Origin: a virus
Strand: one strand, 5' to 3'
Length of the DNA stretch: 35,763 bases
Virus record (IMG/VR): IMGVR_UViG_3300045988_049511
Span: 1-35,763 of that record
Below the pieces are notes generated by a model. The model searched no databases and was not told the origin of the DNA. It saw only the letters and a list, made by a program, of their open reading frames with translations. Position numbers and translations under genes: made by a program. Of the stretch, positions 177-35,763 are shown piece by piece. Position 1 is the first letter of the stretch. Every line of letters begins with the position of its first letter.

Positions 177-216
177 GTTATATAATCTGTTGTATTATAC
201 GATCGAAAAACCGTCC

Positions 217-1491
217 CTACTTGAAGAACGGATGGTTGCTCAATATCTCGGCATTCTCCTCTGCAGATACGCGGATGTACTTCAGAAACGTGCTCTCCAG
301 GCGGTGCCCCGTGATCTTCATGATAGCAATGGTGGGAACGCCTGCCTTGTAGGCGTTCGTCGCAAATGACCTGCGGGCCGTGTGGGAGCTGACAAGCTGG
401 TATTTCGGGAGCACGACCTCCGTATTGTGCCCTCCGACATTCTTGTTGACGAGTACCTCTTCGTCGATGCCGGCCATACGGCACAAATCCTTGATGTGGG
501 CGTTCAGCTTCTGGTCGCTTACCGTGTCGGACAGATCGAACCCGCTGTCGATAATCTCCCGGACGACGGGATGGATCGGTATGACCACCGGCGTCCCTGT
601 CTTCTGCGTCTTGATCGTGATGAACTTGCCGATATGCGCATCCCGCAGCCGCGAGAAGTCGGACACCCGTAGCCCGGTGTAGCAGCCGATCAGGAACAGA
701 TTGCGCGCTCGGTTGAGTGCCGAGATACGCTTCGTCAGCCAGTCGCCGGATATGGGGTGTTTCGGGTCCTGCACCGTCGATTCGTCGATCTTCAATGAGC
801 GGATCAGGTCCAGCTCCTCCGGAGACAGATACACCGAATCGGCTGTGTCGTTCGGACACGTGAAGTCCCGGTGGACTGTGCCGGTTCCGTCATGCAGGTG
901 GTCGACATCGCGGGCCTCCTTGTATACCTGCTTTATGACCTTCATGATATTCCCGAAGTAGTTCCGCGAGAATCCCTGCGCGAAGAACCACCGCTTGAAG
1001 CGGTTGTAGAAGTCGATGTTTACGTGGTCGAATTTCACCCGGTAGCGGGCGAATGTCTCGAACTCACGCAGCTTGTTGAGCACGACCCGGTATATCTTCA
1101 CCGTATCAGTCCCCCGGACGTTTTGATAGCGCGGGATGTAGACGTTCGCAAGATACTCGGCGAGGTACTGGGGGCCTTCCGTCGTCTCTTCGCGTCCTGA
1201 TGCTGACAATTCGGCAATCTTCGCCGAGAACTCCTCGGCCGTCGGGACCCGTCGGCTGTCCATGAAATAGCGGTATGCGCGGCGGCCTATCTCCTCCCAG
1301 CGATCAATGGCGGCATTTACGATATTCCCGTCAAAATCGGCCGTCACCTTCGCCTGCTGCTTCGCCGCATTCCAATACTTCGGGGGTAGACCTACTCCGA
1401 TGCTCTTGCGATACTGCTTGCCGAATATCGACATGAGCATCACGACCGTGGCCTTCGGGCGGTGCTTGTTGGTGATGATGAAGGTGACCAT
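217..1491 (-). CDS. int: Tyrosine recombinase / phage integrase (Bacteroidetes type)
   Basis: 424 aa. The C-terminal catalytic signature is visible: LRVSDFSRL (Arg), HTARRSFAT (HxxR), GHRLESTFLKYIR (His...Tyr). It is the last gene of the minus-strand lysogeny operon. Confidence 0.93.
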   Translation of the reverse strand: MVTFIITNKHRPKATVVMLMSIFGKQYRKSIGVGLPPKYWNAAKQQAKVTADFDGNIVNAAIDRWEEIGRRAYRYFMDSRRVPTAEEFSAKIAELSASGREETTEGPQYLAEYLANVYIPRYQNVRGTDTVKIYRVVLNKLREFETFARYRVKFDHVNIDFYNRFKRWFFAQGFSRNYFGNIMKVIKQVYKEARDVDHLHDGTGTVHRDFTCPNDTADSVYLSPEELDLIRSLKIDESTVQDPKHPISGDWLTKRISALNRARNLFLIGCYTGLRVSDFSRLRDAHIGKFITIKTQKTGTPVVIPIHPVVREIIDSGFDLSDTVSDQKLNAHIKDLCRMAGIDEEVLVNKNVGGHNTEVVLPKYQLVSSHTARRSFATNAYKAGVPTIAIMKITGHRLESTFLKYIRVSAEENAEILSNHPFFK

Positions 1492-1495
1492 GGTG

Positions 1496-1729
1496 TTATT
1501 TATCCCGGCTCAAAAGGAATTTGCCAATGGATGCCACGCACCACAGCAGTGCGCCGAACGAGAACGATCCGATTCCGGAACCGATCAGATATCCGGCGTT
1601 GAGCTCACCGACGATGAGGTTGTAGATTCCGAATGCCGCAGCGATGACGCCCACAGCCAGGAAGAGATATCCCATGGCATTTGCAACGGCGGCCGATGAT
1701 TTCAGTTCTTTGAGAATTTTTTCTGACAT
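1496..1729 (-). CDS. Small membrane protein, two predicted TM helices, unknown function
   Basis: 77 aa with two long hydrophobic stretches (GYLFLAVGVIAAAFGIY and GSFSFGALLWCVASI). The stop lies 4 nt upstream of the int start codon (1492-1495), and an 8-nt gap separates it from the lipoprotein gene. Confidence 0.7.
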   Translation of the reverse strand: MSEKILKELKSSAAVANAMGYLFLAVGVIAAAFGIYNLIVGELNAGYLIGSGIGSFSFGALLWCVASIGKFLLSRDK

Positions 1730-1737
1730 AGTATCTG

Positions 1738-2343
1738 TTATTTAATCTTCCAGTCATACGGTACGACAACACGCTCGGTCATGCAATCTTTTATGAAATT
1801 GAAGGTCATGCCGTTTTCGGAGGTGATGGATATGTCCGACCAGCTCTTCCAACCGTTGGGATTGAATGTCGTGTTGCACAAGTATTTTTTCGCCGCTCCG
1901 GTGCCGATGATGATATTGGGCCATCCTGATTGTAAATTTGGAGCGCATGATTCCAAGACCCATCCCTGGTCGGTGAAGTTGACGACCTTAACTTTCGCCT
2001 GGAACCTTGCACCTCCGTCAAGCACAATGTTCAACGTAGGATAATATTCTCCACCTTTCAGACCGTAGATGGTATAGAATTCATAATTTTCATCGGTGTA
2101 CGTTTTCCCCATGTCGACGGTCGACTGTACATCGGGTATTAACTCGGCAAGGTAATCGGGCACAAGCACCTCGAATCCGTCTCCGGTCAGAGTGTCTGCC
2201 ATCATGCACACGCCTCCAAATCCTTCGATATATGCACTTCCGAAGAAGACGGTGCGGTTTGAATATTTGGGTGTTTCTGTTTCATTGTTTCTTGCACATC
2301 CTACCAATACAATGGATAACAATATTACTATATACTTATACAT
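1738..2343 (-). CDS. Lipoprotein, unknown function (lysogenic-conversion or exclusion candidate)
   Basis: 201 aa. The N-terminus MYKYIVILLSIVLVGC has a signal peptide and an L-V-G-C lipobox. It is visibly AT-richer than its neighbours (hand counts of 33-38% GC in two 60-nt samples). Confidence 0.8.
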   Translation of the reverse strand: MYKYIVILLSIVLVGCARNNETETPKYSNRTVFFGSAYIEGFGGVCMMADTLTGDGFEVLVPDYLAELIPDVQSTVDMGKTYTDENYEFYTIYGLKGGEYYPTLNIVLDGGARFQAKVKVVNFTDQGWVLESCAPNLQSGWPNIIIGTGAAKKYLCNTTFNPNGWKSWSDISITSENGMTFNFIKDCMTERVVVPYDWKIK

Positions 2344-2346
2344 CTT

Positions 2347-2904
2347 TCACTTGTTAGCTATTCGATTGATATTTGCGACAATACTTATGATGAATATTGC
2401 GGCGAACACAACAAACACAAATGTCGGATTGATCCAGTCGGCCGCAACCGCTACGACGAGGAATATCATCAACCCCACAACGATAACCCCTCCGACCGTG
2501 AGCTGCATATCTTTTCGGTCCTTCTCGTGCTGCGCTTTCAACTTCTCGGTCTCTGATCGGAGGCGCACGATCTCCGCATCGCGGCGTGCTACCTCGGCCA
2601 TTTGCCGGGATATTTCCTTTTGCGCATTCTCCAGCGCACGCGCATACTGGGTCTTCAGTCGTTCGATCTCCGCCGCCATGCCGTTGATCCCGCTGTCAGC
2701 CGTTCTTCGGCTCCTTCTACGCGTTTTACCCGGGTTAGCGATATCATTGTAGGCTTCGTTCACCCGTTTGATCAGATCGTCGAAAAATGGGTCTCCGTCG
2801 TGTTTGTCCGGATGGAGCTTGCTGACGTACATTTTGTACGCCTTCTTCACCTCTTCCAGGGTCGCATCCGGTGTCAGCCCCAATATTTCGTACGGGTCCG
2901 TCAT
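2347..2904 (-). CDS. J-domain (DnaJ-like) protein with coiled coil and C-terminal membrane anchor
   Basis: 185 aa. DPYEILGL...KKAYK...LHPDK is a canonical J domain with the HPD tripeptide. A basic linker follows, then a heptad-like ERLKTQYARALENAQKEI...KLKAQHEKDRK segment, then two hydrophobic helices (VGGVIVVGLMIFLVVAVAA and FVFVVFAAIFIISIVA). Confidence 0.85.
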   Translation of the reverse strand: MTDPYEILGLTPDATLEEVKKAYKMYVSKLHPDKHDGDPFFDDLIKRVNEAYNDIANPGKTRRRSRRTADSGINGMAAEIERLKTQYARALENAQKEISRQMAEVARRDAEIVRLRSETEKLKAQHEKDRKDMQLTVGGVIVVGLMIFLVVAVAADWINPTFVFVVFAAIFIISIVANINRIANK

Positions 2905-2905
2905 T

Positions 2906-3553
2906 TTACAGTTGTCGGCGGTTCAGCTTTCCTTTGACCAAAAATATCTTCAGTACGTCGTTGCGCGGGACAATCGTGTCGCCGGCATACTTCGGGTTTG
3001 TCGCCCGAAGTATGAAGTTTTGCCGGTCCTCCGACAAATATACGTTTTTTATCGTTCGGAGATTATCGCAGGCGGCATTCGTGATGACGAGATACGGCTC
3101 GCCCCAAAGCATCGAATCGACATTGCGAATCTCTCGGACGAGAATCACCTCTCCGGGGTAGAAGTCCGGGACCATGCTGTCGCCGTATACGGGGAATGCG
3201 GCGTCGCAGTCGTTCAGTGGCGGAAAGTTGATATAGTATTGCACCTCTTCGCGCACGTCGTGAAACGACTCCGTTATGGATGCCGTCACATCCATGTCAT
3301 AATAAGGTATTCCCTTCCCGTCTGACGCATTATTCTCCGATTTAGTCATCTCTCCTCGTCCGGTTAGAATCCAATCCGGACTTGTGTCGAAGTATTTTGC
3401 AAGTAATTCTATTGTGCTGCTGCTTGGCTTTGCCGTTGAATTATTGATAATTCGGCTCATTGTCGCCTGCGACACACCTGTATGCATCGAAACAATATAA
3501 GGAGTAACGCCTTTATATTCAAGCAGTTTTTTTATTCTTTCACCTATACACAT
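2906..3553 (-). CDS. cI: CI-like repressor: XRE-type HTH plus S24 (LexA-like) autopeptidase domain
   Basis: 215 aa. The N-terminal HTH is IVSMHTGVSQATMSRIINN. The C-terminal part has GDSMVPDFYPGEVILV (S24 Ser motif) and a downstream VKGK. It is divergent from the early operon. Confidence 0.88.
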   Translation of the reverse strand: MCIGERIKKLLEYKGVTPYIVSMHTGVSQATMSRIINNSTAKPSSSTIELLAKYFDTSPDWILTGRGEMTKSENNASDGKGIPYYDMDVTASITESFHDVREEVQYYINFPPLNDCDAAFPVYGDSMVPDFYPGEVILVREIRNVDSMLWGEPYLVITNAACDNLRTIKNVYLSEDRQNFILRATNPKYAGDTIVPRNDVLKIFLVKGKLNRRQL

Positions 3554-3687
3554 AAAAATAATTGCATTTTACTTGCATAATGCTTGCATTATACTTATAT
3601 TTGCAATGCGAACGCAACCGATACCGCAAAGATACGGCGACGGTTCACGGCTTGAAATAGCAAATATATATAAATTTTTGAGAACAA
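3554..3687. promoter_or_regulatory. Divergent switch region: operator-like repeats plus Bacteroidetes -7 boxes on both strands
   Basis: TTGCAT at 3562, 3573 and 3584 (11-bp phasing) and TTGCAA at 3601. A perfect palindrome ATAATGC-tt-GCATTAT lies at 3577-3592. TATATTTG (TAnnTTTG) lies at 3596-3603 on the plus strand, and CAAATATA at 3661-3668 gives TATATTTG on the minus strand. Confidence 0.7.
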
Positions 3688-3912
3688 ATGCAATATCCGC
3701 GATCGAAATCATTCAACAAGGGCCTGCGCGAGGTTGCATACGGCAAGCATAAGGAGTTGAAGGCTGCGCTTATGAAAGCAATCGGAATCGCCTCCGAGCC
3801 AATATGGCGCAAGTACCGTGACGGCCAGACGAAATACCTCGACGTAGACGTCGCCCGTCGCATCGAAGAGACGTTTGCCGCATTTGGCGTGAAGAATCCC
3901 TGGGGAGAGTAG
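3688..3912 (+). CDS. Small early protein, Cro-like by position (putative DNA-binding)
   Basis: 74 aa. It is the first gene of the rightward operon, divergent from cI. The function is positional inference only. Confidence 0.6.
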   Translation: MQYPRSKSFNKGLREVAYGKHKELKAALMKAIGIASEPIWRKYRDGQTKYLDVDVARRIEETFAAFGVKNPWGE

Positions 3913-3914
3913 CC

Positions 3915-4295
3915 ATGAAGACGGATTCCATACTCTCAAAGGCCGAGGCACGCGTATCGCGTGGGTACGTGGAGGGATTGAGCGGCAAGGAGATCGCCGA
4001 CCGTCTATGCATATCGTACAACACGGTGATCCGCCACACGCAGAATATCTACGAGAAGATCGGCCGGCACTCCATTCACGGGCTGGTGGCGTGGTGGTTC
4101 TGCGCGAACTTCGACATTGAGCTGGAAGAGATAATCCGTCGCATCGGGGCCGCCTGCCTGCTGGGTTTGTTCTGCGCTTACACCTTCGGAGGCGGGGATT
4201 TTGAGCGAACGGCACGCCGGGCACGACGCAGTCGCCGGGAAGTTGAATATGTAATCGGAGGACAGGATTATGATAGCATTGAATTCGACGAATGA
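3915..4295 (+). CDS. LuxR/GerE-type HTH regulator with a hydrophobic C-terminal segment
   Basis: LSKAEARV...GLSGKEIADRLCISYNTVIRHTQNIYEKIG matches the LuxR C-terminal HTH pattern. It is followed by IGAACLLGLFCAYTF. Confidence 0.8.
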   Translation: MKTDSILSKAEARVSRGYVEGLSGKEIADRLCISYNTVIRHTQNIYEKIGRHSIHGLVAWWFCANFDIELEEIIRRIGAACLLGLFCAYTFGGGDFERTARRARRSRREVEYVIGGQDYDSIEFDE

Positions 4296-4572
4296 CATAC
4301 TTGCCGAGAATATGGCACTGAAAGAGCAGCTTGACCGGGCCCTTCGGATCATGGCGAACCATCCGCTTACGGTAGCCGAGACGTGCGAGGCGTTGAAGAT
4401 CAACCGCGACACCGTGAGAGACTATCTGAAACGCGGGATCCTGCGACGGCATCCTAAGTCCACCAGCGGCCGGGTTTTGATATTCGGCGACGAGGTGGTG
4501 ACGCACACGAAAAAGGATCTGCGCCGGATCAAGAGATGCAAGAAATGGGGAATCAATCCAGACACGATATGA
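4270..4572 (+). CDS. Excisionase-like (MerR/Xis-type) HTH protein
   Basis: 100 aa. LTVAETCEALKINRDTVRDYLKRGIL is a typical HTH_17/Xis-like helix-turn-helix. The start is uncertain (4270 or 4312). Confidence 0.6.
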   Translation: MIALNSTNDILAENMALKEQLDRALRIMANHPLTVAETCEALKINRDTVRDYLKRGILRRHPKSTSGRVLIFGDEVVTHTKKDLRRIKRCKKWGINPDTI

Positions 4573-5536: not shown

Positions 5537-5621
5537 GGAGGATTGGCAGAGTGGCTGAATGCACATCACCGCTAACGAGGCAGGCGGCAACGCCTCGGGG
5601 GTTCGAATCCCTCACCCTCCG
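5537..5621 (+). tRNA. Class-II (long variable arm) tRNA-like element, Ser(GCU)-like but with a defective anticodon arm; possible pseudo-tRNA
   Basis: Acceptor GGAGGAT/ACCCTCC pairs 6 of 7 (one A-C). D arm is GCA-GAGTGGCTGAA-TGC. The variable hairpin is GGCG-GCAA-CGCC. The T arm is GGGGG-TTCGAAT-CCCTC. The anticodon arm CATCA-CCGCTAA-CGAGG pairs only 3 of 5, and position 33 is C rather than U. No CCA is encoded. Confidence 0.5.
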
Positions 5622-5751
5622 CAAACCCTTTTGGATTGGTGTTGGCAAGTAGGACGACGATGACGTATGGGATTTACGCATTAGGATATGCGGTGGCAAA
5701 GCGGAAAAGACGCTTGACTTCATCGGACAGATAACGCGAAAGCCAATGGCG

Positions 5752-5771: not shown

Positions 5772-5842
5772 TGATCCTTGGTGTAACGGTAGCACCGCAG
5801 ACTTTGGTTCTGCTGGCCCCGGTTCGAATCCGGGAGGGTCAA
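5772..5842 (+). tRNA. tRNA-Gln (anticodon UUG)
   Basis: Folded by hand. Acceptor TGATCCT/AGGGTCA (U1-A72, one G-U). D arm GTGT-AACGGTA-GCAC. Anticodon arm GCAGA-CTTTGGT-TCTGC. T arm CCCGG-TTCGAAT-CCGGG. Discriminator A. Confidence 0.9.
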
Positions 5843-5862
5843 CAACTCAACACCAACAGACT

Positions 5863-35063: not shown

Positions 35064-35635
35064 GCCGCTGGGAGACAACCGTGATTGCCTTGGCCGCCAC
35101 CTTCCTCGGAGGGTTGTGGCTGGGGCAATACGTCTCCCGGCCGGAGATCGTCGAGCGGGTGCGGGTCGATACGGTGTTCTACGAGCGGCCAAAGCCGTTC
35201 GCGGTGGCGGAGCGCCCGGTGGCGGTGCATGTGCCGCGGATGCTGTTCGCTCCGGCCGACACGGTGGACCGGGCGGTCGTCGTGGGCGACAGCGTGCAGA
35301 TAACGGTCACGGAGCGCACGCTGGAGTACCGCGACTCAACCTATTACGCCCGGGTGGTCGGGCCGGCCGTGGGGACGCTGGGCCCCCGGCTCGACTACTT
35401 TGAAACCTACAACAAGACGGTCGAGCGGGTGCAGCTCGTCCGTGAACCTTACGCCTGGGAACTGGGGCCCGCGATGGGGACCTGGATGACCAGGGATGGC
35501 AGCGGGATGTGGGCAGGCGCCTACGCCCGGCGAACGTTCGGCCGATTCAGCGTGTCGGCCGCCGCGGGATACGACGCCCGCAACAAAAGCGCCTTCGGCC
35601 AGGTCGAGGCCGGTATGGCGCTGTGGAGGCGGTAA
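35060..35635 (+). CDS. N-terminally anchored envelope protein, spanin-analogue candidate
   Basis: 191 aa. It has an N-terminal TM segment (TVIALAATFLGGLWLGQYV), a Gly/Ala/Tyr/Arg-rich beta-like C-terminus and an ATGA overlap. It is the last gene before the terminator. Confidence 0.6.
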   Translation: MSRWETTVIALAATFLGGLWLGQYVSRPEIVERVRVDTVFYERPKPFAVAERPVAVHVPRMLFAPADTVDRAVVVGDSVQITVTERTLEYRDSTYYARVVGPAVGTLGPRLDYFETYNKTVERVQLVREPYAWELGPAMGTWMTRDGSGMWAGAYARRTFGRFSVSAAAGYDARNKSAFGQVEAGMALWRR

Positions 35636-35763
35636 CGGTTGCATCGTTTAACTAATCATTTCGGCAATCAATCGGTATATTTGCCGAAATATAAAAGAGC
35701 GATATCCAATTTCGGCAATGCTAAAGGCAACATGCTGAAATTCAATAGTCCCGGCAGCTCAAC
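35623..35763. repeat. Right copy of the 141-bp terminal direct repeat (circular closure or terminal redundancy)
   Basis: Identical to 1-141. The last CDS (35060..35635) ends inside it. Confidence 0.97.

Follow-up and report, generated by a model that had tools for sequence, protein, structure and literature searches.

Closest described systems

J domains recruit and activate Hsp70. The present study concerns a gene for a membrane J-domain protein (J protein) and its two neighbours in the IMG/VR virus record IMGVR_UViG_3300045988_049511, of which the whole stretch of 35,763 nucleotides (nt), positions 1 to 35,763, was analysed and is called the window. The three genes (positions 1496-2904) encode the J protein, a lipoprotein and a small protein with two transmembrane (TM) helices (2-TM protein), and they lie between the repressor gene (cI) and the integrase gene (int) of a temperate phage. 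The interval is probably a variable cargo bay of the lysogeny operon, holding three genuine and independently exchangeable morons and not one system. Integrase-adjacent slots of prophages, a productive source of anti-phage and host-modifying genes, are almost unexplored in gut Bacteroidales such as Alistipes.

Among the described J proteins, DjlB and DjlC of Escherichia coli are tail-anchored class C members and partners of HscC (PMC8215388). DjlA requires both its J domain and its membrane location to disrupt IgaA-RcsD, which switches on capsule synthesis (PMC11709261), and it also regulates an efflux pump post-translationally (PMC10754441). Rki of the T4-like phage RB43 was the first phage J protein to be characterised and acts via DnaK on sigma-32 (PMC3486835), while DnaK/DnaJ are required in the replication of lambda and P1 (PMC8215388). 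Among the phage lipoproteins, Ltp, the exclusion lipoprotein of Streptococcus phage TP-J34, is encoded in the lysogeny module and transcribed in the prophage (PMC3952083).

Like DjlB and DjlC, the phage J protein is small and has an N-terminal cytoplasmic J domain with the HPD tripeptide, a C-terminal anchor and no known client-binding domain. Unlike them, it contains a coiled-coil spacer, its anchor is a hairpin of two helices where theirs is a single tail anchor, it is phage-encoded in a lysogeny operon with no dedicated Hsp70 gene nearby, and no homology to them was detected beyond the J domain (NCBIfam gave J-domain-level matches only). DjlA is the best mechanistic analogue, being an inner-membrane J protein that directs DnaK to membrane clients and alters envelope signalling. 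It is built in the opposite order, with an N-terminal TM segment, a TerB domain and a C-terminal J domain, and the DjlA model NCBIfam PRK09430 matched the phage J protein over residues 2-54 only, with 25 bits against a cut-off of 162 (E=1e-5). Bacteroidota are not known to have an Rcs system. With Rki, the phage J protein shares that it is a phage-encoded class C J protein, and action on host DnaK, shown for Rki, is proposed here. Rki is a soluble protein of a virulent phage with sigma-32 as its target, whereas the present protein is membrane-anchored and encoded behind cI in a temperate phage.

The lipoprotein resembles Ltp in being a prophage lipoprotein of the lysogeny module, on the repressor strand and between cI and int. 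It differs from Ltp, Llp and Cor in having no sequence similarity to them (the PHROG Cor profile matched the signal peptide only, E 0.09-0.18), another predicted fold and a Gram-negative Bacteroidota host. The best Foldseek matches in both structure libraries were clan AA retropepsins (APRc 5c9f and the RVP domain of Ddi1); unlike these, the lipoprotein is lipid-anchored and larger (about 185 amino acids (aa) when mature), has a DTLTG motif and finds no support from hidden Markov models or other profiles. The J gene, for its part, holds the position that PD-Lambda-1 holds in one related locus (L042), directly after cI, although the J protein has no homology to PD-Lambda-1. Because known defence genes stand in this first position, a protective role of J gains support by guilt of association.

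Gene content of the locus

The J protein (185 aa, positions 2347-2904), the orphan-family lipoprotein (201 aa, 1738-2343) and the small 2-TM inner-membrane protein (77 aa, 1496-1729) are encoded on the minus strand, and with cI before them and int after them they make five consecutive minus-strand genes at the left end of the window. The intergenic gaps from cI through int were 1, 3, 8 and 4 nt. The assignment of the J protein was made from Pfam, the J domains in PDB, hydropathy and the ratio of nonsynonymous to synonymous substitution rates (dN/dS); that of the lipoprotein from its signal peptide and lipobox, AlphaFold2 (AF2)/Foldseek and dN/dS; and that of the 2-TM protein from hydropathy, homologues in the same position and dN/dS. 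An earlier note on this DNA had described this layout, a J protein with a canonical HPD motif, a coiled coil and a C-terminal membrane anchor, a lipobox lipoprotein in AT-richer DNA and a two-TM peptide, and all of these features were confirmed. In line with its statement that no described exclusion or defence system is known with this composition, PADLOC-DB 2.0 gave no convincing match to the single genes or to the trio. Two plus-strand open reading frames (ORFs) antisense to the cargo (1307-1699 and 2192-2752) were set aside, as the minus-strand frames are under strong purifying selection.

Slot variation among relatives

Homologues of each cargo gene were traced to their contigs, and 100-odd further integrase-anchored loci were screened. 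The order cI-J-lipoprotein-2TM-int was found in the window, L001-7, L010-12 and L025/26. In L008/9, a J gene (83% identical) was followed by an unrelated 130-aa YbjQ-like lipoprotein and int, while L023/24 had the lipoprotein and 2-TM genes with no J gene. A DUF5763 protein stood before the lipoprotein and 2-TM genes in L021/22 and before the lipoprotein gene in L027, which had no 2-TM gene. An HSDR_N protein was followed directly by the 2-TM gene (88% identical) in L141-143, which had no lipoprotein, and in L034 an HSDR_N-like protein was followed by a 2-TM gene (44% identical) and another lipoprotein. Other lipoproteins, together with a secreted protein, a YbjQ fusion or PD-Lambda-1, were found in L035/36, L039 and L040-42. 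The genes were tightly packed in all slot variants of the relatives, with 0-32 nt between them.

The earlier note had taken the trio for one module and had tied this proposal to co-conservation across relatives. The survey found independent assortment (L008, L021, L023, L027, L034, L141) and the three genes were not co-conserved, so that this part of the note did not stand. The trio is thus very unlikely to be one co-evolved superinfection-exclusion or abortive-infection system in which J would bring DnaK to the lipoprotein and the 2-TM peptide. Such a system would fit the contiguous and tightly spaced trio of at least three lineages (window type, L010-12, L025/26) and the J gene that adjoins a lipoprotein gene in L008, L151 and L147. 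Every pairwise and single combination was, however, found in close relatives, and a DUF5763, HSDR_N or PD-Lambda-1 protein can replace J while the lipoprotein position is still filled. The divergence of the genes and a truncated J allele, both described below, tell against it as well. A specific coupling of J with lipoproteins in general was rejected as unproven, since lipoproteins occupy the slot just as well where there is no J.

The first position of the slot was occupied by several kinds of protein. PD-Lambda-1 directly followed cI in L042 (3077-4489; PADLOC E=1e-168), and the cI-to-int slots of L141 and L040 held a stand-alone HSDR_N nuclease-like protein (2349-3440) and a YbjQ_1 fusion protein (3467-4495), respectively. 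The DUF5763 protein in the J position (L021 5465-5959; L027 3688-4197) was 157-164 aa long; besides its Cys-rich motif it had a coiled coil and either a signal peptide or an anchor. In L038, a Bor-family lipoprotein (3329-3688; Pfam 7e-19) was encoded upstream of int, and no cI match was found in that locus. In the best-supported picture, a protein of the cytoplasm or inner membrane (J, DUF5763, HSDR_N, a YbjQ fusion or PD-Lambda-1) comes first in the slot and a lipoprotein second, with an optional 2-TM gene beside int or before the final lipoprotein (L034). The claim that exclusion and defence genes reside between int and cI was borne out by PD-Lambda-1 in L042 and the HSDR_N proteins elsewhere, together with Bor upstream of int. 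Alistipes/Rikenellaceae phages thus have a hot spot for morons and defence genes in this region.

Selection and recombination

J had a pairwise dN/dS of 0.09-0.15, the lipoprotein of 0.09-0.28 and the small protein of 0.10-0.40, compared with 0.08-0.11 for int, and synonymous divergence was saturated between lineages. Because dN/dS lay within 0.09-0.40, all three cargo genes are genuine coding genes under purifying selection. It is therefore extremely improbable that what separates cI from int is filler made of decaying or non-functional ORFs. A nonsense allele of J, the loss of the 2-TM start codon in L021 and the very small number of public homologues are what could be said for filler, but for the window alleles it is refuted by the selection analysis with its saturated synonymous sites. 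A canonical J domain, in an architecture kept to 39% identity (L151), speaks against filler too.

The comparison of the window with L025 separated the genes. J had a dN of 0.02 and int was 95% identical, while dN was 0.27 for the lipoprotein and 0.29 for the 2-TM protein; the lipoprotein/2TM cassette was about 35% diverged while J and int were 95-96% identical. From this contrast, the lipoprotein and 2-TM genes were swapped as an allelic cassette independently of J, which again argues against the one-system proposal. Recombination break-points were located within J (about nt 200) and after about codon 54 of the lipoprotein gene. The first ~200 nt of the L025 J gene resembled L008 and the remainder was identical to the window. 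Lipoprotein codons 1-54 were identical in the window and L025, with sharp divergence beyond them.

The central segment of the lipoprotein diverged fastest, with a ratio of nonsynonymous to synonymous polymorphism (pN/pS) of up to 0.8 against 0.14-0.25 elsewhere. Such a segment, as in an arms race, bears on the proposal that the cargo genes are lysogenic-conversion factors for gut fitness (envelope, stress or bile tolerance, immune evasion), with lambda Bor as the model. This proposal is possible, though on the unlikely side. The Bor-family lipoprotein upstream of int in L038 agrees with it, as does the filling of the slot by lipoproteins of many unrelated families, and membrane J proteins are known to alter capsule synthesis and efflux-pump activity (PMC11709261, PMC10754441). 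Against it stand the fast central segment and the sharing of the slot with PD-Lambda-1 and the nuclease-like HSDR_N proteins, neither of which is decisive.

The J-domain protein

The J domain (residues 1-62; nt 2719-2904, minus strand) was identified with Pfam and PDB. Pfam DnaJ PF00226 matched residues 3-60 with 53.6 bits against a cut-off of 27.8 (E=2.5e-14), and the domain aligned to the E. coli DnaJ J-domain structure 1bqz (E=5e-8). In the alignment to DnaJ, the HPD tripeptide, which joins helices II and III, was H31-P32-D33 (nt 2806-2814, minus strand), and K20, K21 and K24 of the basic helix II lined up with KAYKR of DnaJ. Sequence and hydropathy placed a charged and helical coiled coil at residues ~75-130 (nt 2515-2682, minus strand), and hydropathy a C-terminal TM hairpin at residues ~134-178 (nt 2371-2505, minus strand). 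Two hydrophobic segments started at about residues 131 and 150 of 185, with DWINPT in between, and the protein was without a signal peptide. This combination of an N-terminal J domain and a C-terminal membrane anchor is that of DjlB/DjlC-type tail-anchored J proteins. No match for an Hsp70 partner was obtained among the window ORFs examined, and none was called beside the J gene in the relatives' loci.

The J protein also gave weaker matches in PADLOC. The LeoBC match (E=1.6e-6, residues 34-179) and those to LeoC and LmuB were judged compositional, as they cover mostly the coiled coil and the TM tail, and the PD-Lambda-1 match (E=0.027) covered coiled-coil residues 64-140 only.

Close homologues of the J protein were few. 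The architecture of J domain, coiled coil and TM segments recurred with other neighbours in the accessory regions of other Bacteroidales phages (L146, L147, L149, L151), and the J domains of distant phage homologues of this type were 39-71% identical. The order in L151 was repressor, J protein and unrelated lipoprotein, while an unrelated lipoprotein stood ahead of J in L147. The J subtype, with the motif HPDK[H/N]DGD[P/K]FF and TM segments, was common in Bacteroidota of many environments and included ~195-aa proteins made up of a J domain and a two-helix hairpin. Because the subtype with TM anchors is widespread in Bacteroidota, the phage J protein appears to be a phage-borne variant of a broad and uncharacterised group of membrane class C J proteins, and judged by its sequence it adds a new, phage-encoded variant to the tail-anchored J proteins of class C. 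In a Prolixibacteraceae metagenome-assembled genome (L016, 2093-7915), the gene for a 1940-aa helicase-like protein carrying NTPase motifs of the Walker type was followed immediately by that for a J protein with TM segments of the same subtype. This non-phage context hints that the subtype might have another role.

Codon 130 of the J gene (2515-2517, minus strand) is CGA in the window and TGA in a circulating allele, a single C>T change in the DNA alignment. The R130* nonsense allele was present in L136-L140 (14 contigs from at least 5 samples or sequencing runs), and the rest of the J gene was unchanged. The gene is thereby split into an ORF for a soluble protein, made up of J domain and coiled coil, and a 53-aa ORF for the TM hairpin. 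The contigs with the anchor-less J keep an intact lipoprotein and 2-TM gene, and this persistence is a further point against a single system of three parts.

The truncated allele is of interest for another explanation, in which J would serve the phage itself through an Rki- or lambda-P-like use of DnaK (for example keeping a host stress regulator stable, helping in replication or assembly, or tuning the lysis-lysogeny decision) and the other two genes would be unrelated morons. The soluble product of the allele still has its J domain and coiled coil, Rki of RB43 is the only characterised phage J protein and acts through DnaK on sigma-32 (PMC3486835), and the replication of lambda and P1 needs DnaK/DnaJ (PMC8215388). 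This explanation is nevertheless unlikely. The J gene lies on the lysogeny strand right behind cI and opposite the early lytic genes, and the membrane anchor is conserved across the distant phage homologues. J is also missing from the otherwise similar relatives L023 and L021, so that it is not needed for the life cycle.

In the reading of the locus as an exchangeable cargo bay, J would most likely bring the DnaK of the host to the cytoplasmic side of the inner membrane, where it would act on a membrane client to remodel it, as DjlA does with IgaA/RcsD. By this analogy, chaperone hijacking by the J protein alone is possible.

The lipoprotein

Read from the sequence, an N-terminal signal peptide and the lipobox LVGC (Cys16; nt 2296-2343, minus strand) mark the lipoprotein, and its gene had a GC content of 0.45 against 0.549 for the whole window. 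Some gene callers start it at Met47 (155 aa), but the full ORF including the signal peptide was intact in all relatives. Surface-exposed lipoproteins of Bacteroidota carry, as export signal, K-(D/E)2 or Q-A-(D/E)2 just after Cys+1 (PMC5080379). This motif was not found in the lipoprotein of the window (C-ARNNETE) or in those of the relatives (C-SKNDND or C-SKNGDSE); the residues in this place are acidic yet non-canonical, and the lipoprotein may face either the periplasm or the outside of the cell.

An exhaustive profile search of 1.84e9 representative proteins gave 8 matches in all, including the remote lipoproteins P0021 and P0023, the gene of the latter adjoining an integrase gene. A weak match, P0024 (a DUF11-like repeat protein), was dismissed as chance. 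The family had 21 invariant positions, and among these D50-T51 (nt 2191-2196, minus strand; family alignment) closes the second strand, while I146-G147-T148 forms a strand and then a helix.

AF2 with 7 close sequences gave a predicted local distance difference test score (pLDDT) of 39.9. After the two remote members were added, the best model reached a pLDDT of 78 and a predicted TM-score (pTM) of 0.74, and the other four had 45-58. With this one confident model of five, the top Foldseek match in PDB was Rickettsia APRc 5c9f (E=6e-4, probability 1.0, TM-scores 0.34/0.47); Ddi1 and proteinase A were other best matches, and the four best PDB matches were all aspartic proteases. In BFVD, 9 of the 11 top matches carried retro- or pararetroviral proteases or phage homologues. 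Judging by the order of secondary structure, D50-T51 and I146-G147-T148 may sit where retropepsins carry D-T/S-G and hydrophobic-hydrophobic-Gly, respectively. The structural comparison suggested in the earlier note gave retropepsin-like top matches, but with low TM-scores and no support from profiles. No Pfam aspartic-protease family matched any of the 9 family members at E<=10, and searches of the nine against Pfam (E<=10) and PHROGs (E<=5) returned signal-peptide-level matches only (Cor, spanins, LPAM). A PDB-sequence profile search with the lipoprotein alignment returned only chance chitinase matches (E>0.3), and hhalign of the family against HIV-1 protease gave a probability of 0.2%. The lipoprotein is tentatively regarded as a beta-barrel protein of retropepsin-like fold.

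In the cargo-bay reading, the lipoprotein would be directed to the outer membrane and its predicted fold would be retropepsin-like. A bolder version, which has a limited probability, gives both products a specific task. J would be a new kind of single-gene protective factor of the prophage. It would keep DnaK at the inner membrane to remodel a client there, such as the injection machinery of an incoming phage, a protein of envelope signalling or a transport or receptor complex, and superinfecting phages would thereby be excluded or the cell surface reprogrammed. Independently of J, the lipoprotein would contribute to exclusion as a (pseudo)protease, diverged from the retropepsin-like group and working either in the periplasm or on the surface.

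The small 2-TM protein

The hydropathy of the 77-aa product showed two hydrophobic segments. Relatives had homologues with 44-94% identity at this place in the slot, whether or not the lipoprotein was present. The 2-TM gene of L021/L022 had AAG instead of the ATG start codon (L021 6584-6586), and initiation at an internal Met would give 54 aa with both helices. As an inner-membrane protein, it would usually, though not always, travel with the lipoprotein as an allelic cassette.

Phage genome and host

An exact repeat of 141 bp was found at the ends of the window, where positions 1-141 equal 35623-35763. Because of this exact terminal redundancy, the window is a complete circular phage genome of ~35.6 kb. 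The junction of the phage attachment site (attP) with the host lies near position 125, where homology to an integrated copy (L002) stops, so the window was opened beside attP. Both forms were seen among metagenomic copies: in the circular L003, int abuts lysis and tail genes, and in the integrated L002 it abuts bacterial genes. The bacterial flank gene in L002 was 99% identical to Candidatus Alistipes avistercoris, and Rikenellaceae and Alistipes genomes hold related integrases. The host of the temperate phage is an Alistipes species. Megablast of the first 6 kb of the window against GenBank phages gave zero matches.

The first gene in the lysogeny operon is the cI-like repressor gene (215 aa, 2906-3553, minus strand), whose product combines a helix-turn-helix (HTH) domain with an S24 autopeptidase (Pfam HTH_19 1e-8 and Peptidase_S24 1e-6; PHROG 4, transcriptional repressor, 1e-28). 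The last is the tyrosine integrase gene (424 aa, 217-1491, minus strand; Pfam Phage_integrase and Phage_int_SAM_5; PHROG 1). Two tRNA genes, Ser(GCT) at 5537-5622 and Gln(TTG) at 5772-5843, were found by ARAGORN and Rfam in agreement in the early region on the plus strand, the strand opposite to the lysogeny operon, and the Rfam scan gave nothing beyond these two.

Control region and transcription

A divergent control region of the cI/cro type (134 bp, 3554-3687, both strands) with a GC content of 0.336 was recognised from promoter motifs and operator-like repeats. Because a sigma-70 promoter scan is inappropriate for Bacteroidota, the scan was made with the Bacteroidetes-type -7 motif TAnnTTTG, with or without the -33 element. 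Motifs accompanied by the -33 element were confined to the cI/cro intergenic region (minus strand, 3668 and 3634; plus strand, 3596), and the scan gave no minus-strand promoter motif between 2904 and 1491. Operator-like direct repeats were present at 3557-3574 and 3579-3596 (22-nt spacing), and inverted arms with TTGCA at 3596-3607/3657-3668 and 3561-3569/3686-3694; the operator-like repeats overlap the promoter motifs. A terminator-like hairpin with a T-run lies over the int stop codon (211-231, minus strand); it came from a consensus scan whose match count in the region was no more than expected by chance, and the hairpin is a weak candidate. The tight spacing, the promoter motifs upstream of cI and the hairpin after int fit, and do not prove, a cI-to-int operon expressed in lysogens. 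The placement of the cargo in a lysogeny operon, as first proposed, is supported by the promoter motifs, which stand at cI/cro and not in the cargo.

Weighing of the cargo-bay reading

In the mechanism proposed for the cargo bay, morons would be exchanged at ORF-precise junctions, and each cargo gene would separately protect or modify the lysogen envelope, most likely by superinfection exclusion or defence. From the comparisons made here, we infer both the recruitment of DnaK and the function in the envelope or in exclusion.

Several observations weigh against this picture. The nonsense allele shows that the membrane anchor of J is dispensable for phage survival, and the loss of the anchor could mean that the J gene is neutral in some hosts. 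Co-transcription of the cargo with cI in lysogens is probable from spacing and motif scans, and two -7 motifs without the -33 element lie within cI, at 3042 and 2946. PADLOC, Pfam, NCBIfam and PHROGs gave nothing for the lipoprotein or the 2-TM protein, and no phenotype is on record for J, the lipoprotein, the 2-TM protein or their homologues. The retropepsin-like fold comes from one of five AF2 models with TM-scores of 0.33-0.50. The catalytic D-T/S-G is absent, the window having DTLTG and the family L/T, T/S and G/D/N/M in the positions after D50-T51. Finally, J stands beside some lipoprotein in four independent lineages (window, L008, L151, L147), and there may be a loose functional link between J and lipoproteins generally.

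Significance

The result is a moderately interesting list of candidates and no new system. The finding is a variant of prophage morons and of class C membrane J proteins, with two testable leads. As a three-part chaperone-hijacking module is unsupported, experiments are best designed gene by gene. Known defence genes (PD-Lambda-1) alternate in the slot with uncharacterised genes, which singles out the membrane J protein, the DUF5763 and HSDR_N proteins and several orphan lipoproteins as candidates, each open to a test of its own. If the proposals are true, the protection of lysogens by a co-chaperone would establish a new principle of defence, and the lipoprotein would put the retropepsin-like fold to a new use by anchoring it to lipid.

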